A DNA stretch of 64,000 bases from Thermoanaerobaculia bacterium (GCA_963816185.1 CAWFJJ010000024.1:640001-704000), one strand, 5' to 3'; shown: positions 8,209 through 63,309, numbered from the stretch's first letter. Notes: generated by a model not told the origin, from the letters alone. Program-made: numbers and translations.

Positions 8209-8227
8209 CGATTCGGGCCAGCGTCCT

Positions 8228-8936: not shown

Positions 8937-8965
8937 TGATCCTCGATCCTATCCTTGATGCCGCC

Positions 8966-10021
8966 GTGCGCCTGTTCGTTCTCCTTGCTTTGGCATTCGC
9001 TCGTGCGGCTTTCGGTGCCGAAGCACCCGGTGCCGCGGCCGAGGGGTCGCTCAGCCTGGATGGACGAACGATCCCGTTTCATTACGCATACGTGACGGAA
9101 CACGGGACGCTGTGGGTGACGCTGTCCGCGTCCCCGCTCGATCGAGGGCAGTTGAAGCAGATCGATTTCGGCCACCTGCCTAGCGAGGAAGCCGTCTTTC
9201 TGGAGATTCACGTCAACGGGCAGAGGGAGGCGACATCCATCTCCGTGCGGGCGCGGAGCCTGGCCGACGGCCTTTTGAACAACGATGACGTCGGAGTTTT
9301 CTCCGCGAAAGTCGCTTCTGCGGAAAGGGTTGAAGGAAGCCTGACACTTCCGTTGCCGAGGGAGATCAAGGGCCACCGCCTCTCTTATTCCGTCCGGTTC
9401 CGCGCGCTCCCGCCTGCCTCCGGTCCGGTTCGGAATCTCGACGACGCTCTCGATCGTGTGCCTTCGATCCGCAGACCGTTCGCCCGATTCAACCCCTCTG
9501 ACGCCGTCCTGGGAATCGGCGTCCTGGGCTCCTTCCTTCTCCTGGTCGCTCTCGCCCTCGCCTGGGCACTCTTCATCGCGCCACGCCGGGCGCGGAGTCT
9601 TTTTCGGGAGCTCGAGGAGCGAGGCTACGCCGAGATGGACAGGGCCGCGCCGGAGCTGCAGTCTGCGATCAAGTCGCTCGCGCCCTTGGAAACGGAATTC
9701 AGCGCCCGCCTGCGCAACCTCGACCACATCGGCCGCGGCCGTGAAGAGAGGTTCGGTTTTCGGAAGGTCGACGTTCCGGGTCTGTCGACCGAATTCGCTT
9801 CCCTGTATGCGGTCTATTCCAGGAACGGGCGCGACGTCGCGGTGTCGCCGCGGCTTCAAGAGGCGCTCCTCGACATCTCGCGGACTTTTTGGCCGTCGAG
9901 CAACTCCAATACGAGGTTCGGCCCGAACGGCTGGGGCATCTCCGCATCGAGCGCCTGGCTGGACCGCAAAGCGCTCCGGATCCTGCTCGACGCCGCGGAT
10001 CGCATCTCCGGAGCGCTTTGA
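8966..10021 (+). CDS. Hypothetical exported/membrane protein (signal peptide, one internal TM helix)
   Basis: GTG at 8966 opens a signal peptide (RLFVLLALAFARAAFG); TM LGIGVLGSFLLLVALALAWALFI; plausible codon usage; start uncertain. Confidence 0.65.
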   Translation: MRLFVLLALAFARAAFGAEAPGAAAEGSLSLDGRTIPFHYAYVTEHGTLWVTLSASPLDRGQLKQIDFGHLPSEEAVFLEIHVNGQREATSISVRARSLADGLLNNDDVGVFSAKVASAERVEGSLTLPLPREIKGHRLSYSVRFRALPPASGPVRNLDDALDRVPSIRRPFARFNPSDAVLGIGVLGSFLLLVALALAWALFIAPRRARSLFRELEERGYAEMDRAAPELQSAIKSLAPLETEFSARLRNLDHIGRGREERFGFRKVDVPGLSTEFASLYAVYSRNGRDVAVSPRLQEALLDISRTFWPSSNSNTRFGPNGWGISASSAWLDRKALRILLDAADRISGAL

Positions 10022-49066: not shown

Positions 49067-50332
49067 ATGCGCGCCCCGTCATCGAGACCGATCTGGCTCG
49101 TCGTCCTCCTGCTCGGCCCGGGCCCTTCGGCCGCGCAGAACATCCTCGCGAACCCGGGCTTCACCGCGAGTCTCGCCGGATGGACGGTGGAGTCGGGCGT
49201 CTCGGCGGGCTGGTCTCCCCTCGACATCGCCGGATCGGCGGTGTCCGGCTCCGCGCTCGTCACGAATTCCTCGGGCGTCGACGGGTTTTCCGGAGGGCTG
49301 GCGCAGTGCGTCGCCGTGGTTCCCGGTGTCGGGTACGCGTTTCGCGTACGCTTTCGCGTCCCGTCGGCACAGTCGAGCGCCGCGCGGGTTCAGGCGGCTC
49401 TCGATTACTTCTCGGGTCCCTCGTGCGTCGGGACCACGACCGGCGGATTCGGAAACGACACCGGGGCGATCACGTCCGGATTCGACTCCTGGAACGACTT
49501 TGTCATCGGCACGGGCGTCATCCCCACAGGCGTGACGAGCGTCCTCGTCGGCGCCCGCCTCGCGAAGGTGTCTGCCGGCGGAGTCGTTCGGGCGTATTTC
49601 GACTCGCCTTCGCTGGCACCGGTCGCGACGCTCACGATTCCCGCTTCGGCGTCGATCCACGGGCAGAACGGAACGTTTTTTCAGACGGATCTGTGGGTTC
49701 TCGGTTCCTCGGCGCTGTTCGACGTAACGGTCACGGCCCGACATCGCTGTTTTGCTTCTCAGACCTGCACCCATGCGAGTCAGCCTTTCCAGGTCCATCC
49801 CCGCCAGTCCGTGTATTTCACCGACGCGCTCGTCACGCTGTTCGGCGATCCCGGTACGTCCGGGGCGATCGAGCTGAGCTTCGACACGGCCACTCCGATC
49901 ACGGTGCTGTCGCGAACGTACTCGCCGTCGCTTCCCGCGCCGACGACGGGGACGTCGGTGCCGGCGTCTGCCTCATCCGAGGCCCGCACGCGCGCGGTCC
50001 TGGTCGGGCTCGCCTCGAGCGGCGGCGACCTGTCCCAGGGCTTCCGCTCGAACGTGGGCGTCTACAACCCGGGCGCTTCGGCCGTCTCGGTGACGGTCAC
50101 GTTGCACGCTAGCTCGGGAGCGACGCTGGGGGATCCGGTTTCGCTCGAACTGGCGCCGAACGAAGCCCAGCAGGTGAACGACATCTTCTCCGCGGCGGGC
50201 GCCGGGCCGACTCTGTCGAGGAACGCGTATGCCGTCGTGACGTCCGGCGCGGCCGTGTTCTCCTATGCCACGGTCATCGACAACCAGTCCCAGGACTCCG
50301 TGTTCATTGCGGGGGCGGACGACGGATCCTGA
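49067..50332 (+). CDS. Exported hypothetical protein (carbohydrate-binding-like N-domain plus beta-sandwich domains)
   Basis: Signal peptide, NILANPGF..GW start, IPASASIHGQNGTFFQTDL, FRSNVGVYN, YATVIDN. Confidence 0.75.
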   Translation: MRAPSSRPIWLVVLLLGPGPSAAQNILANPGFTASLAGWTVESGVSAGWSPLDIAGSAVSGSALVTNSSGVDGFSGGLAQCVAVVPGVGYAFRVRFRVPSAQSSAARVQAALDYFSGPSCVGTTTGGFGNDTGAITSGFDSWNDFVIGTGVIPTGVTSVLVGARLAKVSAGGVVRAYFDSPSLAPVATLTIPASASIHGQNGTFFQTDLWVLGSSALFDVTVTARHRCFASQTCTHASQPFQVHPRQSVYFTDALVTLFGDPGTSGAIELSFDTATPITVLSRTYSPSLPAPTTGTSVPASASSEARTRAVLVGLASSGGDLSQGFRSNVGVYNPGASAVSVTVTLHASSGATLGDPVSLELAPNEAQQVNDIFSAAGAGPTLSRNAYAVVTSGAAVFSYATVIDNQSQDSVFIAGADDGS

Positions 50333-51468
50333 GGGCCCGAGGGACGCGGACGGGAGCTCAGGCGACCGGCGAGCGACGAGACCGTGGCGGATCGATCGCC
50401 TTCTCTCGTGCGGACGAGAAAGCGCGTGCCGGGTGCGGTCCGCTCGCGCTTGACGTACCCGAGGGCGGTCGCCGACCGGAAGCCCGCCGCGCGCGACGCG
50501 CTCGTCACGGCGCCGACCTTCTCTCCTTCGAAGAAGATCTCGCTGCCGGCTGAAGGAGCTTCGCCGTCCAGGAGCAGCCGAACCAGGCTCCGGTTCACGT
50601 GGCCGTACGTCTTGATGCGAGCCACCGTCTCCTGCCCGATGTAGCAGCCCTTCGTGTCGGAGACGAATCCCCGCTCTCTCAGCCCCGCCTCATCCGGGAG
50701 GACGGCTTCGGTCAGCTCGAATCCCCAGCGGGGGATCCCCGCCTGGATGCGCAGACTCTCCATGTCGGCGTCCGAAGCCTGCCTCGCCCCGGCGACGAGG
50801 AACGCCTTTCGGATCTCTTCTGAATGGGAAGAAAGGCAGCGGACGTCGTAGCCCGGGACGCCCGTCCGGTTCTCGCGAACGAGGCGGATGGGAATGCCGG
50901 TGTCGTGGCCTGTTGACTGAGGAGCATCGGGAGTCGCTGGTTCTTCTTCGAAAAGTAATGAGGCGTGGAACGAGGCCGTCAGCGCCTCCGGCGGCTCGTG
51001 CGCCGGAACGGCGCTGGAGGCCGATTCTTCGAATGGGATTCGCGCCGTGACGTGACCATGCGGCGTGTCCGGCAACGCCGCGGCGGGTCCAAGCCTTATT
51101 ACCTTTCTAAGAAATTCTTCTACCGCGTCTCCCGCCGCCGAATGCTGGAGGTGAAAGACGGCCGTCTCCGATGTGAGATTCCCGACTTCGACCTCGTTGA
51201 AAACCAAATACTTCCGAAGCAGATCTTCAATCTTCTTCGCGAGCTCCGGCTCGCAGTCGATCTCGAGGCGGTCCTCCTCGCAGAGGACGACGCAGTCGGC
51301 AAGGAGCTTTCCCTTCGGCGTGAGGAAGGCCGCCGCGCAGCCGGTGCCCGGCGTGAGCTTCTTGATGTCGTTCGTGACGAGGCCGTGGAGGAATGAAGCG
51401 CGCTCCTTGCCCGTCAGGATCACGGCGCCCCGGCCGGTCACGTCGAAGAAAAGAGGAGCGGACTCCAC
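50263..51468 (-). CDS. ygfZ: YgfZ/GcvT family folate-binding protein with an internal insertion
   Basis: FLHGLVTND, FLTPKGK, LRIQAGIP, KGCYIGQETVAR; start at GTG 51468 is my estimate. Confidence 0.85.
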   Translation of the reverse strand: MESAPLFFDVTGRGAVILTGKERASFLHGLVTNDIKKLTPGTGCAAAFLTPKGKLLADCVVLCEEDRLEIDCEPELAKKIEDLLRKYLVFNEVEVGNLTSETAVFHLQHSAAGDAVEEFLRKVIRLGPAAALPDTPHGHVTARIPFEESASSAVPAHEPPEALTASFHASLLFEEEPATPDAPQSTGHDTGIPIRLVRENRTGVPGYDVRCLSSHSEEIRKAFLVAGARQASDADMESLRIQAGIPRWGFELTEAVLPDEAGLRERGFVSDTKGCYIGQETVARIKTYGHVNRSLVRLLLDGEAPSAGSEIFFEGEKVGAVTSASRAAGFRSATALGYVKRERTAPGTRFLVRTREGDRSATVSSLAGRLSSRPRPSGPQDPSSAPAMNTESWDWLSMTVA

Positions 51469-51745
51469 GCCCGGGATTCTCGCATTCGGCGACGCATCTT
51501 CGATCCGTGCGACAATGCGCCGACGTGACAGAGGTTTCGTGAACGACGCCGCCCCGAAGGCCGCGGGCGGCGCCCGGCGCCGGCGGCGCGGCGGGCGCGG
51601 ACGATCGGGCGCCAAGCCACAGGCGCCCGAGGACCTAGCCGATGCCCCGTTTCCGGAGGCCGAACCCGTTTTCGCCGCCCCGCCCCCCGTCCCCGTCACG
51701 TCGAATTTCATCGAGGGCATGGGGACCCCGCCGCCGGCAGGAGCC

Positions 51746-52501
51746 ATGAATCAGGAAGAACAGAATCTCGCCCTCTTCATCGACATCGACAACCTCCTCA
51801 TTGGATTGCGCGAGACCGGGCATCCGAAGTTCGACGTCAAGCTCCTCATCTCGCGGCTGTTGGAGAAGGGGAAGATCGTCGTCAAGCGCGCGTATGCCGA
51901 CTGGAGCCGCTACACGGAGTACAAGCGCGCCTTCCACGAAAGCGCGTTCGAGCTCATCGACATCCCGCAGCATCGCATGACCGGAAAGAACTCGGCCGAC
52001 ATCCGGATGGTCGTCGACGCGATGGACCTCGCCTCGAACAAAGAGCACATCACGACGTTCGTCATCGGTTCGGGCGACTCGGATTTCTCTCCGCTCGTGT
52101 CGAAGCTGAAAGAGAACAACAAGCAGGTGCTCGGCTTCGGCGTCAAGGGCTCGACCTCGGAGCTGCTCATCGACAACTGCGACGAGTTCCTCTACTACGA
52201 GGACCTCGTCCGCGAGAAGACGAAGACGGCGTCCCTCCAAGGCCTGCCCGAGAAGACCGCCGAGGCGTTCTCCCTGCTCATGGACTCCATCCTCGCGTTG
52301 AAGCGCGAGAACAAAGAGATCCTCTGGGGCTCGATGGTCAAGCAGACCATGCAGCGGAAGAACCCGTCGTTCAACGAGAGCTATTACGGCTTCCGTGCGT
52401 TCTCGGAGCTGCTCGAGGCTGCCGAAGAGTCGAAAGTCATCAGCCTGAAGCGCGACGCGAAGAGCGGCTCGTACATCATCACGGGCTTCGGGAACACCTG
52501 A
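51746..52501 (+). CDS. NYN domain (LabA/DUF88) protein with C-terminal OST-HTH
   Basis: ALFIDIDN, KRAYADW, GKNSADIRMVVD, SGDSDFSPL, FNESYYGF; the frame is open upstream so a longer N-terminus (51515 or 51539) is possible. Confidence 0.88.
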   Translation: MNQEEQNLALFIDIDNLLIGLRETGHPKFDVKLLISRLLEKGKIVVKRAYADWSRYTEYKRAFHESAFELIDIPQHRMTGKNSADIRMVVDAMDLASNKEHITTFVIGSGDSDFSPLVSKLKENNKQVLGFGVKGSTSELLIDNCDEFLYYEDLVREKTKTASLQGLPEKTAEAFSLLMDSILALKRENKEILWGSMVKQTMQRKNPSFNESYYGFRAFSELLEAAEESKVISLKRDAKSGSYIITGFGNT

Positions 52502-52515
52502 AGCGCTCGAGACGC

Positions 52516-52663
52516 GTCCGAAGAGAACGAAGAGAAGATTTCTTAGAATGAGTAAGAGGGGCCCGGGGCGTGGCGGTGTGCGCCGAGCAGACGTTTCTCG
52601 TCGCGCGTCGCGGGAGCCCAAGCCCGATTCAACTTCTAAGAAAATCCTCGGTTCTCTTCGGAC
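52516..52663. repeat. AT-rich palindromic element, copy B, overlapping the Nudix 5' end
   Basis: GTCCGAAGAGAAC...TTTCTTAGAA paired with TTCTAAGAAA...GTTCTCTTCGGAC (13-bp perfect outer arms). Confidence 0.8.
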
Positions 52664-53204
52664 CTTCCCCTCGATCTGGCCTGTCATCTCCCGCGAGACG
52701 CTCGGCAGCTTCAAGGTCTTCGCGGTCCGGCGCGAGATGCTGCGTTCTCCCCGGACGAATCTCCCGCACCCGTTCTACGTTCTCGATTGCCCGGACTGGG
52801 CGAACGTGGTCGCGCTGACTGACCGGAACGAGGTCGTCCTCGTCAGGCAGTTCCGCGCGGGCACGCGCTCGGTCACGCTGGAGATCCCGGGCGGCGGCGT
52901 GGAGGCGCACGACGGCTCGGCACTCGTGGCGGCCCGCCGCGAGCTGCGCGAGGAGACGGGCCACGTGGCGCGAAGCTGGAACCGCCTCGGTGTCGTGGAA
53001 CCGAATCCGGCCATCCTGTCGAACCGGTGCACGACGTATCTCGCGCGCGGGTGCCGGCCCGTCGGGGATCTCATCCCCGACGCTGGCGAAGACCTCGCCG
53101 TGGAGCTCGTGCCGTTGACCAGCATCCCGGGCCTCATCCGGCGCGGCCGCATCACACATTCTCTGGTGATCGCGGCTTTTCACTTTCTTTCGCTCGCGGG
53201 TTGA
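52548..53204 (+). CDS. Nudix hydrolase (ADP-ribose pyrophosphatase-like)
   Basis: LVRQFR, LEIPGG, AARRELREETG Nudix box, PNPAI. Confidence 0.88.
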   Translation: MSKRGPGRGGVRRADVSRRASREPKPDSTSKKILGSLRTFPSIWPVISRETLGSFKVFAVRREMLRSPRTNLPHPFYVLDCPDWANVVALTDRNEVVLVRQFRAGTRSVTLEIPGGGVEAHDGSALVAARRELREETGHVARSWNRLGVVEPNPAILSNRCTTYLARGCRPVGDLIPDAGEDLAVELVPLTSIPGLIRRGRITHSLVIAAFHFLSLAG

Positions 53205-53248: not shown

Positions 53249-54226
53249 ATGAAGAAGCTCGGTGCAGCCGCGGTCGTTCTCGTCGCCTGCTCGGGAGCCT
53301 TTCTCGTCGCGAGCACGAAGACGCCTGCCGTGAGGACCTTCGAAGCCACGTACGTCGGGACGATCGCGGCGCTTCCCGCCGCGGCGAAGAAGGCGGAGGT
53401 GTGGATCCCGCTGCCGTCGGACGGCCCCTACCAGGCGATTTCCGACATCAAGGTGGATGCGCCGGCCCCCTTCACGCTCGAAACGGACTCGATGGGAAAT
53501 CGGATGGCGCATTTTGTGCTCGAGAAGCCAGAGCAGTTCGGGAAGGACGTAGTGGTCAAGGCCACGTATCGCGTCACGAGGCGGGAAGCCGTCACTCCCT
53601 CTCCGGGCAGTGCGAAGACGGCCGAGCCTCCCCGCGCAGCAGCTTTTCTGAAGCCGAACCGGCTCGTGCCGCTCACGTCCCGCGTGAAGGAGCTCGCCGA
53701 CACCCTGTCCGCCGGCAAGACCGGCGCCGTCTCCAAGGCACACGCGTTTTACGACTATCTCGTCGACAACGGCACGTACGAAAAGGTGACGCCTGGCTGG
53801 GGCAAGGGCGATTCGGAGCGCTTCTGCGACATCAAGAAGGGAAACTGCACCGATTTCCATTCGGCGTTCATGGCGCTCGCGAGGTCCGAGGGCATTCCGG
53901 TGCGCTTCTCGATCGGCTTTCCGCTCCTGCATGACAAGGAGGGCATCGTTCCCGGATACCACTGCTGGGCCGAGTTCTGGGCGCCAGGACAGGGTTGGGT
54001 GCCGATCGACGCGTCGGACGCGGCGAAGACGAAGGAGCCCGTGAAGAAGGCGTACCTCTTCGGCCACCTCGACCCGGACCGCTTCGACATCACGACCGGC
54101 CGCGATCTCACGCTGTCCCCGCCCCAGAAGGACGGCCCTTTGAACTTCTTCATTTACCCGTACGTCGAGGTGGACGGGAGGGCCTTCGCGGAGACGAAGA
54201 TCCGGCTCGAATATCACGATCTGTGA
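53249..54226 (+). CDS. Exported transglutaminase-like protein
   Basis: Signal peptide; Cys-His-Asp triad GNCTDFH, YHCWAEF, WVPID. Confidence 0.88.
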   Translation: MKKLGAAAVVLVACSGAFLVASTKTPAVRTFEATYVGTIAALPAAAKKAEVWIPLPSDGPYQAISDIKVDAPAPFTLETDSMGNRMAHFVLEKPEQFGKDVVVKATYRVTRREAVTPSPGSAKTAEPPRAAAFLKPNRLVPLTSRVKELADTLSAGKTGAVSKAHAFYDYLVDNGTYEKVTPGWGKGDSERFCDIKKGNCTDFHSAFMALARSEGIPVRFSIGFPLLHDKEGIVPGYHCWAEFWAPGQGWVPIDASDAAKTKEPVKKAYLFGHLDPDRFDITTGRDLTLSPPQKDGPLNFFIYPYVEVDGRAFAETKIRLEYHDL

Positions 54227-55217
54227 CGGTGAGGGGCCCTGACCCGTCGATTGCGAACGCAACGCGCGCGAGCCGAGTCGGAGTCTCGGCCTCCATCCAC
54301 GTCGCCACACGCCGGTCGGCGGTGAGCGCGAGCGTTCCGGGCACCGGCAGAAGGGGCGCATGGAGGACACGGCGCGAGGCCGCCCCCTCCGGCGCATCGG
54401 GGCGTGACCCGACGACGAGGGCGAGATTCCCGATTTCGCCCTCGATCCTGACGACGGCAGGCTCGGGCCCGAGCGTGAGCCAGACCTCCTGGGGAAAAGG
54501 TGCTCCACCGGAACCGCGGAGACGCCGGACCGCCCGCGCCGCGGCGCGCAGGCGGCGAGCCTTCGAGGGGTCGGGCTCGAGTCCTTCGAGATGCTGGCTC
54601 GCATCGGTCAACCGGCGGTCGAGAGCGGCGAGATCGTCCGTCTTTCCGGCGGCGAGGAGGAGGCGTGCGAGGTCGGGTGCCGCGCGCTCGAGGCGGCGCG
54701 AGACGCCTTCGGCGACGCGCGGCGTCTGGACGGACTCGGCGAAGGTCAGCCAGGCGACCGTCGCCTCCCATTTCGCGACGAGCGTCTGGCCGGGCAGGGG
54801 GAAACGCGCGCGGAGCGCGCCCGCGAGCGCGCGCTCGCGAAGCCCGAGGAGCGGTCCCGCTGCGTCGGCCGGCACGTCGGCAAGGGCCCGGCGAAAGGCC
54901 TCGCCGTCGTAGATGCGAACCTGTCGCCCGAGCTTCGGGTCGAACGGCGTCGCGAACGAGACACCCTCGGGCGGGGCGCCGGGACGCGCGGCAAGCCGCT
55001 CCGCCGTCTCTCCGAGGAGAACCTCGGCCAGCGGATCGGGCGTACCTTCGGCTCTGAGGCGGGCGGCGCCCCGCGCGAGGAGGGCCGCCGCGAGCGGAAG
55101 GCGCATGTCGTCGGCTGCGAGATACCGGCCCACGACGACGAGGTTCCTGCTGCCTTCGGGCCCTTCCGCGAAGAGGGAATCGGAAGAGAGAGCCGCGACG
55201 AGGAGCGCGGCGATCAT
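54150..55217 (-). CDS. Exported hypothetical protein, paralog of 56641-58164
   Basis: ATGA-coupled to the SPFH gene, short signal MIAALLVAALS, shares LAAA.L / LLG...E.LAA / YDG.A.RR blocks with the 56641 protein. Confidence 0.65.
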   Translation of the reverse strand: MIAALLVAALSSDSLFAEGPEGSRNLVVVGRYLAADDMRLPLAAALLARGAARLRAEGTPDPLAEVLLGETAERLAARPGAPPEGVSFATPFDPKLGRQVRIYDGEAFRRALADVPADAAGPLLGLRERALAGALRARFPLPGQTLVAKWEATVAWLTFAESVQTPRVAEGVSRRLERAAPDLARLLLAAGKTDDLAALDRRLTDASQHLEGLEPDPSKARRLRAAARAVRRLRGSGGAPFPQEVWLTLGPEPAVVRIEGEIGNLALVVGSRPDAPEGAASRRVLHAPLLPVPGTLALTADRRVATWMEAETPTRLARVAFAIDGSGPLTVTDRDIRAGSSSPRRPSRPPRRTGK

Positions 55218-56404
55218 CGTGAAGTCCCACTCGCGATGCGCTTGCTCATCTCGGGTGCGAGGATGTCTGCAGTCAGATTCGGCATCACGATAACCTGCAC
55301 CTTGTCGCCAAGCTTTTCGGCGAGGGTCTTGTTGACCCAGGTCGGGTTCGCCTGGATGAGCTCCACCTCCCGCTTGAGATTCTCGAACTGTGCGAGAGAC
55401 GTTTGACGGATCGCGTAGGCCTCGGCCTCGGCCATGGTCTTGCGCCGCGAGGCCTCGGCCTCGGCCTGGATCTTCATCGTCTCGGACTGTGACTGCGCGT
55501 CCTTCAGCTTTCGTGCCTTCTGGGCCTCGGCCTCGAGCTCCTGCTGCTTGATCCCCTTCTCCTTGAGCGGCAGGATGTAGGTCATCGCGTCGGCCTCGGC
55601 CTTCGCCTCGATGAGGCGGCGATTCGCGGCCGCCTCGGCCTCCTTGTCGGAGCGGGCCTTGCGCGCCTCTGCCTCGAGCCGCTGCTGCTCGATCTCCTGC
55701 TTCTTGAAGCGGAGGTTCGCCTCGGTGCGTTCGACGAGCTGTGACTGCTCGAGGAGCGCGAGGCGGCCGCGCTCGAACTCGATCGGCAGCTTGAGATCGC
55801 TCACGAGCACGTCCTTGAGAACGATGCCGGTCTCGGCGAGGCGCTCGCCGGCCTGCTTCGCGGCCCGTGCCGCGAGCTCCTCCCGTTTGCTCGCGAGAAG
55901 CGACGGAGCGTCGTACTCGGGCGCGATGGCGCGAAAGGCGGACGCGAGAACCGGCCCGACGACTTCGGGTCCCGGGTCGGCAGGCAGGCCTTCCCATCGC
56001 ACGAGGAGCTGCCCGCGGTCGAGAGCCCAGCGTGCCTGGATGACAAGCCCGACCGCGAAACCGTCCCGCGTCGGAATGGTGAACGAAGCGGCGGGCCCTG
56101 CGAGCAGCTGATCCGATACCCGAACGCGCCTGAGGACGTACAGCGAGCCCGGGAGAAAGTGGCTTCCCGGCGAAACGATGCGGGTGGAGCCGGTGAACTT
56201 GCCGATGACGAGGCCGACGTCGCCGGGCGCCACAGACTTGAAGCTTCGCTCGACCCAGCGCACACCGGACCACAGGGCGACGACGAGCGTCGCTCCGAGG
56301 AGGATGTTGCGCAGGGGCAGGTGTTGCCTCCAGCCGCCGTGGCCGCCGAGGGCGCTGAGTTTCGCGCGGAGGCTGGGAGGGTCGTCGGGATCGGTGCCGT
56401 TCAT
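55214..56404 (-). CDS. SPFH/band 7 (prohibitin/flotillin-like) protein with long coiled coil
   Basis: TM helix, VAPGDVGL, IPTRDG, LASAFR, GIVLKDVLVSDLKLP, repeated EAEA/KAEA; RBS AAGGAG before ATG 56404. Confidence 0.85.
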   Translation of the reverse strand: MNGTDPDDPPSLRAKLSALGGHGGWRQHLPLRNILLGATLVVALWSGVRWVERSFKSVAPGDVGLVIGKFTGSTRIVSPGSHFLPGSLYVLRRVRVSDQLLAGPAASFTIPTRDGFAVGLVIQARWALDRGQLLVRWEGLPADPGPEVVGPVLASAFRAIAPEYDAPSLLASKREELAARAAKQAGERLAETGIVLKDVLVSDLKLPIEFERGRLALLEQSQLVERTEANLRFKKQEIEQQRLEAEARKARSDKEAEAAANRRLIEAKAEADAMTYILPLKEKGIKQQELEAEAQKARKLKDAQSQSETMKIQAEAEASRRKTMAEAEAYAIRQTSLAQFENLKREVELIQANPTWVNKTLAEKLGDKVQVIVMPNLTADILAPEMSKRIASGTSR

Positions 56405-56640
56405 CTTCGTCTCCTTCGCGGCGGAAGGGCCGCACGGAGGCGTCTTCACGAACGATGCCGGGCACCCCGTGCCGTGGACGGGGCGCTCTTCGCTCATCCG
56501 CGATCTCTGTTTCGAAGAAACATACTCCGCATCGCATGATTCCGCCATCACACGCATCACACGGGATGAGAGACGCCGCGCGGCACGAAGCATGAAACGC
56601 CCTCTCCGGGCGCGGACAGGACCCGCGCCGGGAGGTTCAC

Positions 56641-58164
56641 ATGTTTCGCCGCTATCTCGCCCCGATCCTGAGGCTTCTCGCGTTTCTCGCCCTTCTCGCG
56701 TCGCCCCTCGTCCTCGCGGCGATCGCCCGCGCCGAGGAGCCGGAAGGAAAGGACCTCGTCGCGCTCCGCTCGCTCGTCCTCGGCGAGACGCCGATCGATC
56801 GCTTCGGGCGCGGCGGGCGCGTCGCGGCCAGCGCTCGGGTCCAGCTTCTGGAGCGCAACGGGAGTCGCGTTCTCGTCTCGGCTCCTGCCTGGGGCTCGGT
56901 CGCTGCGGCGCGCGGCTTTGCAGACTCCTCGGCGTTCTTCGTCCTCGACGATCCGCTGGAGCCGATCGACCGGCTCGTGACCAACGCGCGCCTCCTCCTC
57001 GAGGCCAACGATCGGCCGGTCCTCGCGGCTGCGTATCTTCACGAAGTCACTCGGCGCGATGCGGCGCATGTCGAGGCGTGGGAGCTCCTCGGCCGCGCCG
57101 GCGAGCTTCTCGCCGCGTCGGCACGGCGGGGTGAGGACGGGCGCGAGCCCGCGTCCGTCCTCCTCGCCCGGGTCTGGGGCGTGTCGCTCGTTCCGAAAGG
57201 CGACGGGAGCGGGTATCGATACGACGGCGCGGCCTACCGGCGCGTGATCGCCCTCGCTCCTCCCGCCGACGTGGCCGAGCGCGCCCGCCTGCGCCTCCTG
57301 ACCTCGTGCGGGCCGGTCGTGAATCCGCTGGCGCCGGCCGATGCCGACGCCGTCTCACGACGCGAGCGCGACCTGGCCGAGTTCCTCTCTTCGTTCCCGG
57401 CGTCGCCTCGGCGCGTGCAATTCCTCCTCGAGCGTGCGCGCCTCCTGTCGTGGCTGGCCGAGGGCGCCGCCCGGCGAGGGGACCGCGAGACCTCCGCCGG
57501 CTACCGCGACGCGGCGATCGAGGCCGCCTCGGAGGTCACGGCGACGACGCCCGATGCGGCGCGCCGCCGCGCGGCCGACCGCCTCGTGGCGCGTCTCACC
57601 AAATCGCTTCCGCGCAAGATCGTTTCCGACAAGGCCGTCGTCTCCGCTTCCGGCCTGCGCGCGCAGTTCGTCGCGAAGGGCGGCGTCACGGCGCTCGTGG
57701 TGACGCGGCCTGACGGCAGGGATGCGATCCAGCCCTATCCCGTCGTCGGCGCGGATCCGGCAAGCCTTGCGTTCGACTCCACGGGCCAGAAGCTCGTGTG
57801 GGACGAGGCGCCGGCGGCCGGCCACCGAAGGACGCGCCTCCTCGACATCGTCCGGGCGCGCGTGATCGAGCCGGCAGCGGCCGCCGAGCCCGAGCTCCTG
57901 TCGGCCGGCGCTCAGGGTCCCTCGAGCGGTCAGGGGCCGGGAGAAGACCGATACACGACGTCTCTCGGCTTCTCACCGGACGGCCGCCTCCTCCTCGTCG
58001 TCTGCGAGGGGTTCACACCCGAAGGCGTGCGGATTCCGAAGCGGCACGTCCTCTGCGACACGGATGGCGCGCGCCGGCCGGTCCTCGTGGATCGCCCGTA
58101 CTCGGCTCCGGGCGTCGTGGACTGGAATCGCCTGGAGCAGATGACCGGGCGGCTGAGCGGATAA
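56641..58164 (+). CDS. Exported hypothetical protein (helical TPR-like region plus beta-propeller-like C-terminus)
   Basis: RBS GGAGG, signal peptide ending ARA, FLSSFPASP, LAFDSTG and GFSPDGR motifs. Confidence 0.7.
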   Translation: MFRRYLAPILRLLAFLALLASPLVLAAIARAEEPEGKDLVALRSLVLGETPIDRFGRGGRVAASARVQLLERNGSRVLVSAPAWGSVAAARGFADSSAFFVLDDPLEPIDRLVTNARLLLEANDRPVLAAAYLHEVTRRDAAHVEAWELLGRAGELLAASARRGEDGREPASVLLARVWGVSLVPKGDGSGYRYDGAAYRRVIALAPPADVAERARLRLLTSCGPVVNPLAPADADAVSRRERDLAEFLSSFPASPRRVQFLLERARLLSWLAEGAARRGDRETSAGYRDAAIEAASEVTATTPDAARRRAADRLVARLTKSLPRKIVSDKAVVSASGLRAQFVAKGGVTALVVTRPDGRDAIQPYPVVGADPASLAFDSTGQKLVWDEAPAAGHRRTRLLDIVRARVIEPAAAAEPELLSAGAQGPSSGQGPGEDRYTTSLGFSPDGRLLLVVCEGFTPEGVRIPKRHVLCDTDGARRPVLVDRPYSAPGVVDWNRLEQMTGRLSG

Positions 58165-58173
58165 TCGCGGCGG

Positions 58174-58698
58174 ATGACGATCACGCTGAAGGAGAACGAA
58201 GACCGGAGGCTGCGGCGAAAATCCGCAGCCTTTCGCTTGAAGCACGATGTCGGAAAAGCGCTCCGCTGGAGCGCGCCGGAAGACAGGGAAAAGGACGCCG
58301 AGGCTCTGCGCGCGCGGCTTGCAGCCGACCTCCTGCCGCGCGCGAGCGGCGGCGGCGCGAATCGTGACGTCCTGGAAACTTTCTTCGAATGGAAGAGGGA
58401 AGAGGGGCCGTTGTTTGCGAGCGGCGATCCGGATCTGGAAGCGGTCGAGCGGGCCATGACGACGGTGGGTCGCCTCGTCCCCCGACTCGCCTCCCCCCTC
58501 TTTCCATTCAAAGAATCCTCCTCTTCTCTTTCCGAATCTTCTCTTTCCGAAAACAAGTCCCTTCCTCTCTCCGAGCCTTCCCTCGTTTCCCTCGACGAAG
58601 CCTGTCTCGAGGCGTCGCGTGCCTGCACGGCGTTCTACCGCCGCGTCGCTCTCGACGACGGGCCGGAGATCGTGCGGCCTCTCGGAGAGCGCCGGTGA
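58174..58698 (+). CDS. Small hypothetical protein with H-box-like motif (possible phosphotransfer protein)
   Basis: FRLKHDVGKAL near the N-terminus; GTGA overlap with the next gene; Ser-rich low-complexity patch. Confidence 0.55.
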   Translation: MTITLKENEDRRLRRKSAAFRLKHDVGKALRWSAPEDREKDAEALRARLAADLLPRASGGGANRDVLETFFEWKREEGPLFASGDPDLEAVERAMTTVGRLVPRLASPLFPFKESSSSLSESSLSENKSLPLSEPSLVSLDEACLEASRACTAFYRRVALDDGPEIVRPLGERR

Positions 58699-60344
58699 CG
58701 GCCCGTGGCCCGCGCGTTCTCGTCGTCGACGATCAGCCCAAGACCGCCGAGTTCCTGCGGCGTCACGCGCCGGATCTGGTCTTGCTCGGCCCTTCGGCGG
58801 AGAAAGCCTGGGCGGGAAGCTGGCCGGAAGCCGAGGCGGCGCTTGCGCGTGCTGGGCGAATTCCGGATCTCGTCGTTCTCGATCTGAGATTCGACATTTC
58901 CGACGAGGATCTCCTGCCCGACAGGCGTCCTCTCGGCGAGTCGGCGGCGGGGAAGAGGGACCGGCGGGATCGGCGGGACCGGCAGGGCCTGTTCATCCTG
59001 GAACGCCTGCGCCACCGCGAGAGGGATCTGCCCGTCGTCCTGACGACGGCACACGAGGAGATCCCGTTCGAGGACGAGGCCCGCCGCCTTCGCGCCGACG
59101 CGTTCACGTACACGGTGGGCGAGGACGAGGCGACGGGCGAGGGGCTCGTCCGCCTCGTGCGCCGCGTTCTCGCGGAGAGCGAATCGCCTCTGTCGACGGG
59201 AAGGTTCTTCTGGGGCCGCGGTGCCGCGATGAGGGACCTGCGCCGCCGGATCGCGTCCCTGGCGCCCACGCCGCTGCCGCTCCTCCTCACGGGACCGACG
59301 GGTTCGGGCAAGAACTTCCTCGTGAAAGAGGTGATCCACCCCCTCTCGTCGCGCAAAGGGCCCCTCGTCTCCTTCGATTGCGCGACGGTGCCGGAGACGC
59401 TCCTGCAAGCCGCGCTCTTCGGCTCGGTGCGCGGTTCATACACGGGCTCGGTCGCGGACCGGGCGGGGGTCTTCGAGGCCGCGGCGGGCGGGACTCTCTT
59501 TCTCGACGAGATCGAGAACCTGTCTTCCGATGCCCAGAAAGCTCTTCTGACGGCGCTCAACGACGGCGTCGTGCGGCGGGTCGGGGCCACGGCCGCCGTG
59601 CCGCACACGGCGAGGATCGTGGCCGCGTCCAACGCGGACCTCAGGAAGCGCGTTCAGGACGGGCTCTTTCGCGCGGATCTTCTGATGCGCCTCAACCCCG
59701 CGCTTGCGCTCGAGCTGCCGCCGCTGTCCGCGCGGCGCGAGGACCTCGAGGACCTCGCCGACGACTTCGCGGCGACGTTCTTCTCGGACGCGGTTCATCG
59801 TCAGGAGATCGCCGTGCAGGTGCGTGCGGCCGGAGGAGCGGAGCCGGACCGGGAAGATACGTTCGAGCTCGCGCGGGGAGAGGAAGAGGTCGCGCGGAGC
59901 CGGGCCCCGGTCGTCTTCGCCCTCCCGCGCAAGGGCTGGCAGGCGATCGCCCGTCATCCGTGGCCCGGAAACGTGCGGCAATTCGCGATGGTCCTCGCAG
60001 ACCTTCTCGCGGCCACCCTGTACGGCCGAACGGCCGCCACGAAGGATCGGACGGGCCGCGTCGTCTTCACGATGGATCCGCGGCTGCTCTTCGATCTGCT
60101 GGCCGAGGCGCGCCAGGAGGACGTGCCTTCGGCCGGCGAGGTCCTCTCTCTTCCGCGTCCGAAAGTGGAAAGCGTCGAGGGTTTCCGGCGCGAGCTCGAG
60201 CGCTCCGCCTTCCGGCAGGTGTTTCGCGAGTGCGAGGGCGACTTCGCGCGCATGGCCGAGCGCATGACGGGATCGGCGGCCGACGAACGGGCGGTGCGTC
60301 TGCGTTTCAACAAGCTCGGTCTCTCGGCTCGCCGTGGGGCGTGA
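58695..60344 (+). CDS. REC plus sigma54-type AAA+ plus HTH transcriptional activator (NtrC-like, divergent)
   Basis: VLVVDD, VVLDL; GPTGSGKN, LFGSVRGSYTGS, LFLDEI, FRADL.MRL, WPGNVRQ; C-terminal Fis-like helices. Confidence 0.85.
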   Translation: MTARGPRVLVVDDQPKTAEFLRRHAPDLVLLGPSAEKAWAGSWPEAEAALARAGRIPDLVVLDLRFDISDEDLLPDRRPLGESAAGKRDRRDRRDRQGLFILERLRHRERDLPVVLTTAHEEIPFEDEARRLRADAFTYTVGEDEATGEGLVRLVRRVLAESESPLSTGRFFWGRGAAMRDLRRRIASLAPTPLPLLLTGPTGSGKNFLVKEVIHPLSSRKGPLVSFDCATVPETLLQAALFGSVRGSYTGSVADRAGVFEAAAGGTLFLDEIENLSSDAQKALLTALNDGVVRRVGATAAVPHTARIVAASNADLRKRVQDGLFRADLLMRLNPALALELPPLSARREDLEDLADDFAATFFSDAVHRQEIAVQVRAAGGAEPDREDTFELARGEEEVARSRAPVVFALPRKGWQAIARHPWPGNVRQFAMVLADLLAATLYGRTAATKDRTGRVVFTMDPRLLFDLLAEARQEDVPSAGEVLSLPRPKVESVEGFRRELERSAFRQVFRECEGDFARMAERMTGSAADERAVRLRFNKLGLSARRGA

Positions 60345-62848
60345 GCGTGCTGCTGGCGATCCTGCCGGTCCTCCTTGCCATCGCTCCGGGGCCGGAGACG
60401 GATTGCGCCGAGGATCCCGCGACTCTCGCGAGCCAGGCCGAAAAGCTCGTCGCGGACGGAACACCGCTCCCGGAAGACCTCGCTCAGGCTCGGAATTTGG
60501 TCCGGCGCGCACGTCTCGCGTCGCCCTCGCTCGCTCTCGCCCTGCGCGGCGCGGACCTCGCGGCCGCCGCGGGAGACACGGACGACGAGGCACGCCTCCT
60601 CGAGATTGCGGCGAGGGACGCTCCGGAGCTCCTCTCGCCGGCCGAACGCCTCGTGCTCGCGCGGCAAGCCGAGGCGCGAGGGGACCGGCGCGGCGCGATT
60701 CTCCAGTACGGGCACGTCCTGGCCGCGCTTCAAAGGCGCGGGCGGTCGGGCGCGGACTGGATCGGCGAAAACATCCGGCGACTGGACGCCGAGGACGAAG
60801 CCCGAAGGCTCCCGGCTCGCCCCGGATTCGCTCCCCCCTCCGTGGACGCCCGCCGCGCCTTCGCCGACGGCAAGACGGCTCTGAGGCGCGGGGCGAACGA
60901 GCCGGCGCGCGAGGCGTTCCGGAAGGCGCTCCGGCTCTCGCCCGGATACTCCGAGGCCGCGCTCGCGCTCGGAAGCGTCGAGGAACGGAACGGACGGACG
61001 GCCGAGGCGGCGGCGGCGTACCGGACGGCGCTCGCGGCGGAGCCGGACGGCTTCGAAGCTCTCGTGGCCCTTTCGAATCTGCTCTGGAACGAGCCCGACC
61101 GCTCCGCGAAGGAGGAGTCGCTCGCGCTTCTCGACCGCGCCGTCGCGCTCCGTCCTGATCTCCCGCGCCTCCAGCGCGAGGCGGCAGACCGCTGGGCGGC
61201 CTGGGGCGACCCGGCGCGCGCCCTCGAACGGCTCGACGGGTGGTGGGCGCTCGCCTCGCCCGGCGAACGAGCGCAAGCCGCCGGCTTCCGGGAGCGCTTG
61301 CACGCGGGCCTCGCGCGGACGGCGGGCCCCGAGCCGGTCGTTCTCGGATCGGATCCGGCCTCTCCCGCGGTGGGAGCATTCCGCCTCGCGCAGGTTTACG
61401 CGAGCCGGTCCGACGTGCGCGACTGGGACGCGGCCGAGTCCGAGCTTGCCGAGGCCGAGCGCCTGGACCCCGGCTTCGTCCCGGCTCTCGAGCTGCGCGC
61501 CGCCCTGCGCGAGCGTCGGGAAGATCTGGCGGGCGCCGAGCAGATCCTCAAGCGCGCCGTTGCCATCGACCCTTCGCGCGCGATCGCGTGGGAGCGGCTG
61601 GCCGAGCTTCTGGGCCGGCAGGCAGGCCGGGAGCGCGACGTCGAGATCGCCTGGGAGCACGCGGATCAGGCCGGCTCTCGCGAGGCTCTCTTCGCGCTCG
61701 CCCGCATCGCGTCGAGCGAAGGGCGTTCGTCGCGCGCCGTAGCTCTTTACCGGCGCTACCTCTCGGAAGCGGCGGGAGGCGTTCATGCCGAGGAGGCGCA
61801 AGCAGGGCTCGAGCGCGAAGAGAGGCGGCAGGGAACGCTGCGCGGCGCCACGCTCGGCGCCGCCTTGTGCGTCCTCCTGGCGGGCGGTCTTTCCTGGGCG
61901 AGGAGGCGCGTGGGCCTCACGCTCGAGGAGTGGCTGAAGCGCGACCCCGGCGCGACGCGTGACGCACGTTCCGTGGCGGGTCGCCTTTCTCACGAGGCGT
62001 TCAAGCACGGCGGCCTGCTTCTCGGCGAGGCGGTGGAACGCCTGGGCCCGCACGAGGGGCTCGCCGAGGCTGCGCCGCTCCTCGTCGAACGTCTTTACGG
62101 GAGCTCGGGCGCTCCCGGGCTCGTCGCCGAAGGACGAAGGGCTCTTTCCGATCTCGAGTCGTTGGCACGCCGCCGTGGAGCGCGCCTGAACCTGCGATTC
62201 AAGGATCCGCTTTTTTCCCGGGTCTTCCGTTCGCTCGAGGCCCTCGAGAAGGCGGCCGGCGATCTCGCGCGCCTCGCCGAGAGTGGCTCGCTGCCGCCGC
62301 GCCGACTCGCCAGGCTGAGCCGGGAAATTCGCGAGGCCGCTTCGGCGCTCAACCCGCGGACCGCGCAGCTCTTGACGGCAACCCTCGATGCGGCGGGCTC
62401 CACAGAAGCTCGCTTCGAGCGGCTCGCGTCGATTCTCGCGAGCGTCGCGCGCGAAAACGACGCGGCGGTGCCGCCGCTCGCGGGGCTGGGTCTTTTCGGG
62501 GAGGTGGCCGACAGAAATTACGTCCGCGTCCGGATCCCGGAGGGAGACTGGGCCACCCTCTGGCGGAATCTCTTCGCGAACGCCCTGCGCGCTCCGCGCC
62601 TTGCGCTCCTCGCCGAGGAGCGGCGCGACCCGGTGACCGGCCAGGCCCTCGCGCGGTTCGTGCTCTTCGACGGCGATCCGAGGCTCTTGACCGCAGAGAT
62701 GATCCGGGGGCGAGCCGCGGAGCGGGGCCTCGGAATCGTCGCGGACCTGGTCCGGCGATGGGACGGCCTCGTGGACGTGACGCCGGGAACGGGGGACTTC
62801 ACGAAGGGCGTCGCGGTGGAGTTCGCGGCCGTGGAGGAGGCCGCATGA
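60341..62848 (+). CDS. Exported-TPR, single-TM atypical histidine kinase
   Basis: Signal peptide, multiple TPRs, TM ATLGAALCVLLAGGLSW, H-box LSHEAFKH, N-box RNLFANAL, FDGDP, G2-like RGLGIV; GTGA coupling. Confidence 0.7.
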   Translation: MSVLLAILPVLLAIAPGPETDCAEDPATLASQAEKLVADGTPLPEDLAQARNLVRRARLASPSLALALRGADLAAAAGDTDDEARLLEIAARDAPELLSPAERLVLARQAEARGDRRGAILQYGHVLAALQRRGRSGADWIGENIRRLDAEDEARRLPARPGFAPPSVDARRAFADGKTALRRGANEPAREAFRKALRLSPGYSEAALALGSVEERNGRTAEAAAAYRTALAAEPDGFEALVALSNLLWNEPDRSAKEESLALLDRAVALRPDLPRLQREAADRWAAWGDPARALERLDGWWALASPGERAQAAGFRERLHAGLARTAGPEPVVLGSDPASPAVGAFRLAQVYASRSDVRDWDAAESELAEAERLDPGFVPALELRAALRERREDLAGAEQILKRAVAIDPSRAIAWERLAELLGRQAGRERDVEIAWEHADQAGSREALFALARIASSEGRSSRAVALYRRYLSEAAGGVHAEEAQAGLEREERRQGTLRGATLGAALCVLLAGGLSWARRRVGLTLEEWLKRDPGATRDARSVAGRLSHEAFKHGGLLLGEAVERLGPHEGLAEAAPLLVERLYGSSGAPGLVAEGRRALSDLESLARRRGARLNLRFKDPLFSRVFRSLEALEKAAGDLARLAESGSLPPRRLARLSREIREAASALNPRTAQLLTATLDAAGSTEARFERLASILASVARENDAAVPPLAGLGLFGEVADRNYVRVRIPEGDWATLWRNLFANALRAPRLALLAEERRDPVTGQALARFVLFDGDPRLLTAEMIRGRAAERGLGIVADLVRRWDGLVDVTPGTGDFTKGVAVEFAAVEEAA

Positions 62849-63309
62849 CGGCACGGCGCAAGGTCCTCGTCGTGGAGGACGGTACGGAATACGTGGAAGG
62901 CTTCGAGCGCCTCACGGCCGCACGGAACCTCGACGTCCTCTTCGCGCGGGCGAAAGACCTCGAGTCGGCCCGCGCGGCTCTCGCGGGGGAGCGGCCCGGG
63001 GCCGTCTTTCTCGACGTCGTCTTCGACCGCGCTCCGGAGGCCTCTCTCGCGGGAGACGCTGAGTCGCTCGTCGCGCGGTTCGGCGGGGACCGTGCGCGCG
63101 CCCTCCGCCATCTCGCGACGCACCAGGGCTTCTACATCCTCGACGCCCTCGCGCCGATGCTCGAAGAGCTGCCGGTCATCCTCGCGTACGACTTCGCAGT
63201 CGAGCCGCAGCGGCTCGAAGCGCTGCGGCGTCGGGTGCCCCGGCTTTCGGGGCTGCAAGACGGCGCGTCGATCTCACAGGCGCTCGAGATGATGCTGACA
63301 AGCTCGTGA
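62845..63309 (+). CDS. Single-domain atypical response regulator (REC)
   Basis: KVLVVEDG, VFLDVVF, QGFYILDAL, LPVIL; ATGA coupling and RBS GGAGGAGG. Confidence 0.7.
   Translation: MTARRKVLVVEDGTEYVEGFERLTAARNLDVLFARAKDLESARAALAGERPGAVFLDVVFDRAPEASLAGDAESLVARFGGDRARALRHLATHQGFYILDALAPMLEELPVILAYDFAVEPQRLEALRRRVPRLSGLQDGASISQALEMMLTSS

Follow-up and report, generated by a model that had tools for sequence, protein, structure and literature searches.

A prohibitin/HflK-like SPFH gene, its linked partner and a divergent relay operon with a partner paralog in Thermoanaerobaculia

The locus

We analysed a stretch of 64,000 nucleotides from the genome of a Thermoanaerobaculia bacterium (GCA_963816185.1, CAWFJJ010000024.1:640001-704000), referred to below as the window, with respect to a gene for an SPFH membrane protein and the two genes that flank it, P0001 (or A1) and P0003 (or A2). 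An earlier note, made from the DNA alone, had described these three genes and the signalling genes next to them as one seven-gene system, in which both flanking proteins are exported partners of the SPFH protein. We find that the flanking genes are indeed related, and that the seven genes form two back-to-back transcription units: a two-gene cassette with the SPFH gene and P0001, and a relay operon with P0003 as its first gene.

The cassette lies on the minus strand. The SPFH/Band-7 gene (55214-56404, 396 amino acids from its likely start) is followed by P0001 (54150-55217), which upon translation yields 355 amino acids and is a truncated member of the family described below. The two genes show the ATGA coupling that had been noticed before, that is, the ATG of P0001 overlaps the stop codon of the SPFH gene. 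The relay operon lies on the plus strand and begins with P0003 (56641-58164, 507 amino acids upon translation), the full-length paralog. Its stop codon is found 9 nt before the next conserved open reading frame (ORF), which encodes a conserved small protein of 174 amino acids (58174-58698). Next come a sigma-54 enhancer-binding protein with a receiver-like N-terminus (58689-60344, exact start uncertain), a membrane sensor with a TPR-rich predicted periplasmic region (60299-62848, start uncertain) and, as the last gene, a small receiver-like protein (62842-63309). The coordinates first given for both flanking genes are thus correct, as is the 9-nt distance to the relay genes.

The G+C content of the window is about 65-74%, and long spurious ORFs are therefore abundant. 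The SPFH ORF runs on to a first ATG at 56593. Since an AAGGAG is found 7 nt upstream of the ATG at 56404, and since the start region at this position is conserved in six of six aligned loci, we take 56404 as the likely start.

Homology of P0001 and P0003

The paralogy of the flanking genes had been proposed from a few short collinear blocks, and a pairwise alignment with statistics had been suggested as a check. Taken alone, the pairwise alignment does not carry the claim. The best BLASTP segment between P0001 and P0003 is 14 amino acids long (YDGEAFRR / YDGAAYRR) and is not significant (E = 0.064), and the intermediates P0140 and P0139 are only weakly similar to P0003 as well (E = 0.018 and E = 0.30, respectively). 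Because the pairwise search was not significant, family profiles were needed.

We compared a profile of the P0001 family (18 sequences) with a profile of the P0003 family (22 sequences) using hhalign, and found that both can be aligned over 262 collinear columns (probability 93.2%, E = 3e-7, score 62.0). The alignment maps residues 23-313 of P0001 onto residues 109-393 of P0003, and every one of the collinear blocks named in the earlier note falls inside it. Reversed alignments (n = 2) reached scores of 21.8 and 23.8, and column shuffles (n = 30) never exceeded 25.0. As these controls are far below the real score, the similarity between the two proteins is more than a common Ala/Arg composition, the objection that had been raised in advance.

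Furthermore, the distant members of the P0001 family (P0139, P0140 and the orthologs from other genera) are about 490-520 amino acids long and have, compared with P0001, an extra N-terminal domain and a C-terminal extension. When 11 full-length P0001 orthologs from other genera were compared with the P0003 family, the match extended from end to end (probability 98.6%, E = 7.9e-16, 411 columns). From this we conclude that the flanking genes are homologous and that P0001 is a shortened derivative. In summary, as judged by the family profiles, the paralogy of P0001 and P0003 is real, if remote.

At E = 0.001 or better, we found 86 homologs of P0003 and 52 homologs of P0001, and all the named sources are Thermoanaerobaculia or Acidobacteriota. 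The genome of the window has one copy of each gene. Neither P0001 nor P0003 has a Pfam or NCBIfam family at E = 0.01 or better, and no family of these libraries was found for the 174-aa protein either. On the basis of these searches, P0001 and P0003 belong to an unannotated family, here called A, which we found only in Thermoanaerobaculia. In a tree of family A, P0003 is not nested among the SPFH-linked members; it stands on a long branch as the sister of them all.

Domain architecture of family A

The AlphaFold model of P0003 (62 sequences) has a predicted local distance difference test score (pLDDT) of 89.3 and a predicted template modelling score (pTM) of 0.81. It begins with a helix at residues 2-32, which may be either a signal peptide or an anchor. 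The small beta barrel that follows (residues 38-101) resembles the bacterial SH3 domains of NlpC/P60-type enzymes (Z 8.1-8.6, root mean square deviation (rmsd) 1.5-2.5 over 53-64 residues). After a helical repeat domain (residues 109-321) there is a beta domain (residues 340-490), which superposes on the blades of tricorn, TolB and DPP-type peptidases (Z 9.9-10.5, 126-139 residues, rmsd 3.0-3.8), and for which Foldseek finds TolB at E = 3.5e-4. With about 150 residues, too few for six blades, it is a partial propeller. The helical domain, compared on the basis of the P0001 model, matches TPR proteins at Z 10-11.3, where the advised distinctive level for helical repeats is about Z 13; LpoP (Z 10.2) and YbgF (Z 8.5) are among its fold matches. 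No Pfam TPR match was found in this middle domain.

The SH3 assignment could be followed through sequence profiles. P0003 itself has no Pfam match to SH3_3 (PF08239). Relatives stay under the cut-off of 27 with 17.4-25.5 bits, and members of family A come close to it (23.8-25.5 bits). A search of 1.84 billion representatives with the family profile returned 486 proteins at E = 0.001 or better, 38 of them at E = 1e-30 or better. Beyond family A, these matches are mostly tandem SH3_3 proteins (to E = 4e-26), aligned at profile positions 35-100 and confirmed as SH3_3 by Pfam. The Protein Atlas gave only weak leads for P0003 (0.76-0.82), namely SH3_3 and BamD- and TPR-like clusters. Going by the models, a full-length member of family A appears to consist of a signal peptide, a domain of the bacterial SH3 type, a helical domain resembling TPR repeats and part of a TolB-like beta-propeller, in this order.

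The model of P0001 (42 sequences, pLDDT 86.4, pTM 0.81) has helices at residues 20-234 and strands at 243-322, which form a helical domain, a small beta domain and then a disordered basic tail. P0001 has no SH3-like domain at its N-terminus, its beta domain is missing the C-terminal portion, and it is consequently not a full-size paralog.

The tail of P0001 has a simple origin. The last 77 nt of the gene (54150-54226) overlap a convergent transglutaminase-like gene (53249-54226, plus strand, Pfam E = 3e-26), and the basic tail is the antisense reading of the end of that gene. The tail peptide can also be read in L010, a relative that has no P0001 gene, and we therefore regard its conservation as a by-product of the transglutaminase-like gene. 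For the same reason we rejected a supposed P0001 remnant in this relative (G136/L010): the weak hidden Markov model match covers the tail peptide only, antisense to the end of the transglutaminase-like gene.

According to the earlier note both proteins are exported. For P0003 this is clear, given a hydrophobic N-terminus ending in ARA-EE. The orthologs of P0001 in the same genus have an ordinary signal peptide, followed by a Ser/Pro-rich linker, and those from other genera also carry signal peptides. The N-terminus of P0001 in this genome (MIAALLVAAL...) is shortened and has no charged n-region. Since a canonical signal peptide is missing, the export and the compartment of this particular P0001 are uncertain.

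We also calculated the ratio of non-synonymous to synonymous substitution rates (dN/dS) against four same-genus orthologs. The values for P0001 (0.16-0.22) are in the same range as those for the SPFH gene (0.17-0.22) and for P0003 (0.16-0.36), which argues that P0001 is a maintained gene under purifying selection. The short form of P0001 is present at 65-88% identity in many metagenomic relatives.

The SPFH protein

The Pfam assignment leaves the identification of the middle gene as SPFH unchanged: PF01145, with a cut-off of 23.6 bits, scores 46.1 and 45.2 bits (E = 7.5e-12 and 1.4e-11), covering profile positions 2-176 of 176. The protein has one N-terminal transmembrane segment, the SPFH domain and an Ala/Glu-rich C-terminal region. 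A profile of 14 SPFH orthologs found nine matches among the PDB sequences, all of them prohibitin-1, prohibitin-2 or HflK (E = 1.4e-7 to 6e-4); the best solved relatives are prohibitin-2 (E = 1.4e-7) and HflK (E = 9.5e-6). With the window SPFH protein as query, tblastn gave no second place in any listed locus, only the one directly upstream of the A gene.

In the SPFH orthologs, an Arg/Lys-rich segment precedes the single transmembrane helix. By the positive-inside rule, applied by eye, the SPFH domain is hence predicted to lie outside the cytoplasm and to face the periplasm, that is, the same compartment as the signal-peptide-bearing A proteins. A periplasmic orientation of prohibitin-like bacterial SPFH proteins is also suggested by Hinderhofer et al. 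2009 (PMC2636767). The same paper reports NfeD partners for SPFH subfamilies 1, 2 and 5, and none for the HflK/C-like, the prohibitin-like and the remaining subfamilies.

Features of NfeD proteins are absent from P0001 and P0003, which have no Pfam or NCBIfam family and no membrane-helix triplet in their models. There is no FtsH gene in the SPFH operon, although no search aimed at FtsH was made. A single 1:1 complex prediction for residues 50-396 of the SPFH protein and residues 12-335 of P0001, each with its alignment, had a score of 0.00 and counts neither for nor against binding.

Gene neighbourhood in related genomes

Using both profiles as queries, we scanned 201 genomes of this class, cut out 17 loci and mapped the window proteins onto them by tblastn. 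The counts for family f2 in the profile and sensor scans of these genomes include an unpublished genome (G004), and no conclusion rests on it. In addition, a scan of GTDB representatives with the 11 full-length A orthologs gave 43 loci, nine of them identical to L011-L019. All 43 come from metagenome-assembled genomes (MAGs) of Thermoanaerobaculia or Acidobacteriota.

The pairing of the SPFH gene with a P0001-type gene is fixed. In each of the 14 cases with a P0001-type gene (the window and 13 loci, from two families), the SPFH gene is its immediate upstream neighbour on the same strand. The SPFH gene also precedes the A gene in all 38 GTDB-scan loci with upstream DNA, the other five being cut within 200 nt of the gene. 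We have never seen this SPFH gene without an A gene in this clade.

P0003 follows another pattern. In nine of nine same-genus loci, it is followed by the relay genes. Four of these genomes (L007-L010, 95-99% complete) have no SPFH gene and no P0001, neither at the locus nor in the rest of the assembly, and they keep P0003, the 174-aa gene, the activator, the sensor and the receiver. The boundary of this deletion is marked by a NYN-NUDIX(-transglutaminase) block, which is syntenic in all same-genus loci. Because P0003 and the relay are intact where the SPFH-P0001 pair is missing, we assign P0003 to the relay operon and treat SPFH-P0001 as a separate two-gene cassette. The idea that both paralogs are equivalent SPFH partners has to be given up accordingly. 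In the other genera of the GTDB scan there is no P0003-type gene; the only P0003 match is the locus L061 in g6, the other genus of the window's family, at the same place as L011.

The earlier note had expected these genes to co-occur with the relay in other genomes, which is true in part. The relay is adjacent to the pair in the window's own genus, and it is divergent upstream of the SPFH gene in 21 of the 34 GTDB-scan loci with enough flanking DNA. In the other 13 loci, no relay is found within at least 3.2 kb of upstream DNA (four further loci are too short to judge). The sensor was found in 15 of the 201 class genomes, of which 14 gave a match to A or A2 as well. The remaining genome (G009) is assembled in 370 contigs and contains sensor fragments only. 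The sensor was not found in five of five relay-less SPFH-A genomes (92-99% complete), and the same query found it in five of five relay-bearing controls.

As a side observation, the A-gene region (8001-9440), read without frame changes, has one, four and two stops, with split tblastn matches, at L041, L054 and L062, respectively. These loci come from long-read MAGs, and the stops could be assembly indels or signs of gene decay.

The relay operon

The order of the relay genes is P0003, 174-aa protein, activator, sensor and receiver. The 174-aa gene is detected by tblastn in all relay-bearing loci of the 17-locus set and in 18 of 21 in the GTDB-scan set, and it heads the relay operon where P0003 is missing. 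The activator has a strong match to Sigma54_activat (E = 5.2e-48), and its Response_reg score of 22.7 bits is below the cut-off of 30.2. For the last gene, the match to Response_reg is weak (E = 0.058); its position is conserved in all relay-bearing loci of the 17-locus set. The genome of the window also encodes the DNA-binding domain of RpoN (E = 1.5e-63).

The sensor has a large TPR-rich region that is predicted to be periplasmic (TPR families, E = 1e-10), followed by another hydrophobic segment and, at the C-terminus, a divergent domain. TPR families are its only Pfam matches, with neither HisKA nor HATPase_c at E = 0.1 or better. Its 280 C-terminal amino acids (62006-62845, plus strand) have no Pfam match and no PDB sequence match below E = 0.14. 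In a comparison of language-model features, which is a lead only, the nearest clusters are those of HATPase_c (0.92-0.94, 176-196 shared features). This suggests that the domain may be a very divergent kinase ATPase domain.

The putative shared control region

The canonical sigma-54 promoter is TGGCAC(G)-N4/5-TTGCW, where GG at -24 and GC at -12 are spaced as GG-N10-GC. A scan of the window's intergenic region for this consensus gave background-level scores only. The comparison of the orthologous intergenic regions reveals a recurrent variant, GGCACG-N4-TTGAA, which is always oriented toward the SPFH gene. Among the 21 relay-adjacent loci, all from other genera, it is matched at 11 of 11 positions in 13 loci, at 10 in five and at nine in three. 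In the 13 relay-less loci, the best matches reach at most eight of the 11 positions and lie at scattered places. In other words, all 21 relay-adjacent loci have the SPFH-facing motif, and none of the 13 relay-less loci does. At the g6 locus L011, two perfect copies stand back to back. The relay state changes at least three times on the tree of the A proteins; with some three changes, the correlation rests on few events and not on 34 independent ones.

In the window, there is one such motif before each of the two operons. The SPFH-facing copy (56445-56459, minus strand, GGCATCGTTCGTGAA) was identified by ortholog alignment and is found about 40 nt before the ATG; in the same-genus loci this site reads TGGCAC-N5-nGTG(G/A) and is located 40-50 nt before the SPFH gene. 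The copy facing P0003 (56582-56596, plus strand, GGCACGAAGCATGAA) is found 45 nt before the ATG, and in all 10 loci of the window's family such a motif precedes the P0003 start by 45-50 nt. Both the GGCAC(G) element and the spacing fit the sigma-54 consensus. The -12 dinucleotide is GA, or GG before the SPFH gene in this genus, and not GC. By its position and context, the motif resembles a sigma-54 promoter. A strict pattern of the variant occurs 11 times on both strands of the 5.09-Mb genome, and strict patterns of the canonical form give four to five sites elsewhere in the genome.

Between the divergent motifs, an alignment of six loci shows a conserved AT-rich block (56505-56541, including TTTCGAAGAAAC). 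It is kept in L010 despite the loss of SPFH-P0001, and is a candidate for the activator-binding (enhancer) site. The leader of P0003 contains a GC-rich inverted repeat (GGCGCGG...CCGCGCC, 56609-56629, plus strand) just before the GGGAGG ribosome-binding site. The repeat is conserved in 10 of 10 upstream regions, and its location would fit a possible translational or attenuation control.

Two further observations concern the motif. At L058 (1679-6262), about 4.8 kb with a 7TMR-GGDEF protein, an ORF of 593 amino acids without assignment and a major facilitator superfamily transporter are inserted between the relay and the SPFH operon, and the motif that faces the SPFH gene still matches at all 11 positions. 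Outside the window, at position 56746 (plus strand) of contig C1 of the window's own genome (G000), there is a copy of the variant motif, GGCACGCGTCTTGAA, with a Shine-Dalgarno (SD) sequence and a 170-codon ORF 29 nt downstream. This copy is possibly a further target of the same regulator.

Proposed explanation and alternatives

We propose, with a rough probability of 0.55, that the locus is a lineage-specific envelope module of Thermoanaerobaculia built round family A, in which the relay drives sigma-54 transcription and the A proteins act as periplasmic adaptors. The ancestral layout, as seen in other genera, would be one operon with a prohibitin/HflK-like SPFH protein followed by a full-length A protein. 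This operon would often be divergent from a relay made up of a small protein without a described family, a sigma-54 activator, a TPR-rich sensor and a single receiver. In the window's family, a second and strongly diverged A gene, P0003, would have come to head the relay operon behind a sigma-54-like promoter of its own. The SPFH-coupled copy, P0001, would have lost the SH3 domain, the distal part of the propeller and, in this sublineage, the ordinary signal peptide.

The activator of the relay would drive the sigma-54 transcription of the SPFH-A operon. In the window's genus, it would also drive its own operon including P0003, which would then probably be auto-induced. The A proteins would be periplasmic adaptors both for the SPFH assembly and for the TPR ectodomain of the sensor. 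After the duplication these two roles may have been divided, with the stripped-down P0001 at the SPFH scaffold and the full-length P0003 at the sensor, where P0003 may be tethered to peptidoglycan via its SH3 domain. What the comparisons show is the homology, the domain architecture of the predicted structures, the linkage of the genes and the co-variation of motif and relay; we infer the sigma-54 dependence, the periplasmic topology, the protein contacts and the role in monitoring the envelope. The envelope label in particular is suggested only by the domain content (SH3b, TolB-like blades, TPR and SPFH) and by analogy with the Psp and Cpx circuits, and the role in envelope stress or contact sensing put forward in the earlier note is suggested by domain content only. 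The earlier interpretation is thus partly supported and becomes more precise: in place of one SPFH protein with two equivalent partners, we see an SPFH-partner cassette and a relay operon with a captured paralog of the partner, with a shared sigma-54-like control region between them.

Several observations weigh against this explanation. In the genera g7 and g9, SPFH-A pairs occur with no relay that could be detected, and four genomes have P0003 and the relay but no SPFH-A1. The correlation between motif and relay comes down to about three independent evolutionary events, all within one bacterial class. The -12 element reads TGA or TGG, where the canonical element is TGC, so that it falls outside a strict definition of sigma-54 promoters; moreover, the SPFH-facing copy of the window is the most degenerate one (GGCAT...GTGAA). 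The putative kinase domain of the sensor has no Pfam or PDB sequence match, and the P0001 of this genome, without a canonical signal peptide, is of uncertain compartment. The TPR-like matches are below the distinctive level for helical repeats, and the propeller is only partial. Finally, P0003 is placed on the tree outside the SPFH-linked A proteins, and either the duplication may be old or the divergence may have been fast.

Maybe SPFH-P0001 and P0003 with the relay are simply independent units, neighbours by descent in a narrow clade and without any regulatory or physical link. We consider this unlikely, but it is the alternative that survives best. It would account for the four same-genus genomes that keep P0003 and the relay without SPFH-P0001, and for the 13 loci that have SPFH-A without a relay (with the sensor not found in the five such genomes searched); and the data come from one class, with some three changes of the relay state. 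On the other hand, independent units would not be expected to share the promoter-like motif in the way observed, that is, before the SPFH gene in 21 of 21 loci with an adjacent relay and in none of 13 relay-less ones, and as the same type of motif before both divergent operons in the window's family. Nor would the sensor be expected to be confined to genomes with a family-A match, with one fragmented assembly as the only exception. A wiring of the SPFH gene to the signalling cassette, as it had been suggested, is plausible in view of the motif; the SPFH-A pair also exists without a detectable relay.

The second alternative concerns the motif itself. GGCACG-N4-TTGAA could be the operator of another DNA-binding protein, from the relay or from elsewhere, and the operons could be transcribed from sigma-70 or extracytoplasmic function (ECF) promoters. 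The GA or GG at -12, in place of a nearly invariant GC, speaks for such an operator, and so do the strictly canonical sites elsewhere in the genome, from which it follows that the organism does not lack the canonical form. However, the -24 element GGCAC(G) is identical to that of the consensus, the GG-N10 spacing is exact, the motif is oriented downstream at 40-50 nt from the start codons, and it is found only where a gene for a sigma-54 activator is adjacent, in an organism that has rpoN. This makes an operator rather improbable in our view.

The least probable of the alternatives is that P0001 is a relic of the ancestral partner gene in the course of decay, functionally replaced by P0003 and heading for loss: its missing domains and signal peptide, its borrowed antisense tail and the absence of the SPFH-P0001 pair from four of nine same-genus loci would all be in line with decay, but the low dN/dS, similar to that of its neighbours, the intact and ATGA-coupled frame, the confidently predicted fold and the spread of the short form among metagenomic relatives are those of a gene in use.

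Returning to the envelope module, one may go further and assume that family A is the physical hub of an envelope-surveillance circuit. A periplasmic SPFH cage would hold the SH3b/TPR/propeller adaptor, and the adaptor, or a membrane-anchored P0003, would inform the TPR ectodomain of the sensor about the condition of the cage or the peptidoglycan. A phosphorelay would then activate the sigma-54 activator, which would induce the SPFH-adaptor operon in a Psp- or Cpx-like feedback, with TGA at the -12 position. In this complete form, we regard the circuit as rather improbable.

Comparison with known systems

The SPFH protein shares with the HflK/HflC and prohibitin assemblies, which go with the FtsH or m-AAA protease, the N-terminal membrane segment, the SPFH domain, the long Ala/Glu-rich region and the predicted periplasmic orientation. 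Unlike in these systems, a single SPFH gene takes the place of the K/C pair here, and its operon has no FtsH gene. The constant operon partner is also different, being a soluble SH3b/TPR-like/propeller protein of no described family.

In the operons of SPFH and NfeD genes (YbbK/QmcA-YbbJ, YqiK-YqiJ, FloT-YuaF and PH1511-PH1510) we see the same strict pairing of SPFH gene and partner, which at our locus is accompanied by translational coupling. Such a strict pairing is the classical argument for a common function (PMC2636767). The partner found here, however, does not show the NfeD arrangement of three N-terminal hydrophobic stretches with a small beta domain behind them, and it has no Pfam match. 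Its gene comes after the SPFH gene, and the orthologs are secreted proteins with several domains.

In the Psp response, the gene of the activator PspF is divergent from the sigma-54-driven pspABCDE operon. A similar arrangement is found here, with the gene for an enhancer-binding protein divergent beside a sigma-54-type promoter of an operon for a membrane-associated scaffold, and this suggests the logic of a stress response. Differences are that the effector is an SPFH protein with a periplasmic partner and not PspA, that the activator has a receiver-like domain and lies beside a membrane sensor and an extra receiver, and that the -12 element is non-canonical.

The C-terminal domain of family A superposes on TolB-type blades (Z 9.9-10.3). 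Still, it is a partial propeller of about 150 residues without the N-terminal domain of TolB and without any family match at the sequence level. Similarly, the helical domain resembles that of the periplasmic TPR adaptors CpoB/YbgF, BamD and LpoP, which are found in the same compartment, but matches at this level are common for any TPR-like repeat.

SPFH proteins occur widely in bacteria, but few of their clients and signals are known. To our knowledge, the only well-established operon partners are the NfeD proteins and the pairing of HflK/C with FtsH. The listings and abstracts of the open-access literature that we searched contain no description of the present SPFH/partner/sigma-54 arrangement. 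What the locus adds is a prohibitin/HflK-like SPFH protein whose strictly linked partner is of a different kind, namely a secreted protein of the SH3b/TPR-like/propeller type. The system is restricted to Thermoanaerobaculia that have not been cultured, and every functional step is inferred. There is comparative evidence for a dedicated sigma-54 relay, with natural 'knock-out' genomes that are without one or the other half. Testable hypotheses can be derived from this on binding to the SPFH protein in the periplasm, on the control of expression and on a duplicated partner split between scaffold and sensor.

Other features of the window

The upstream neighbours (50263-53204) are, by Pfam, a GCV_T-like protein, a NYN/OST-HTH protein and a NUDIX hydrolase. 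The best canonical sigma-54-type site of the window is located far from the locus, at 5643-5658 on the plus strand (AGGCACGGCCCTTGCT), and an SD-preceded ORF of 315 codons is found 51 nt downstream of it.

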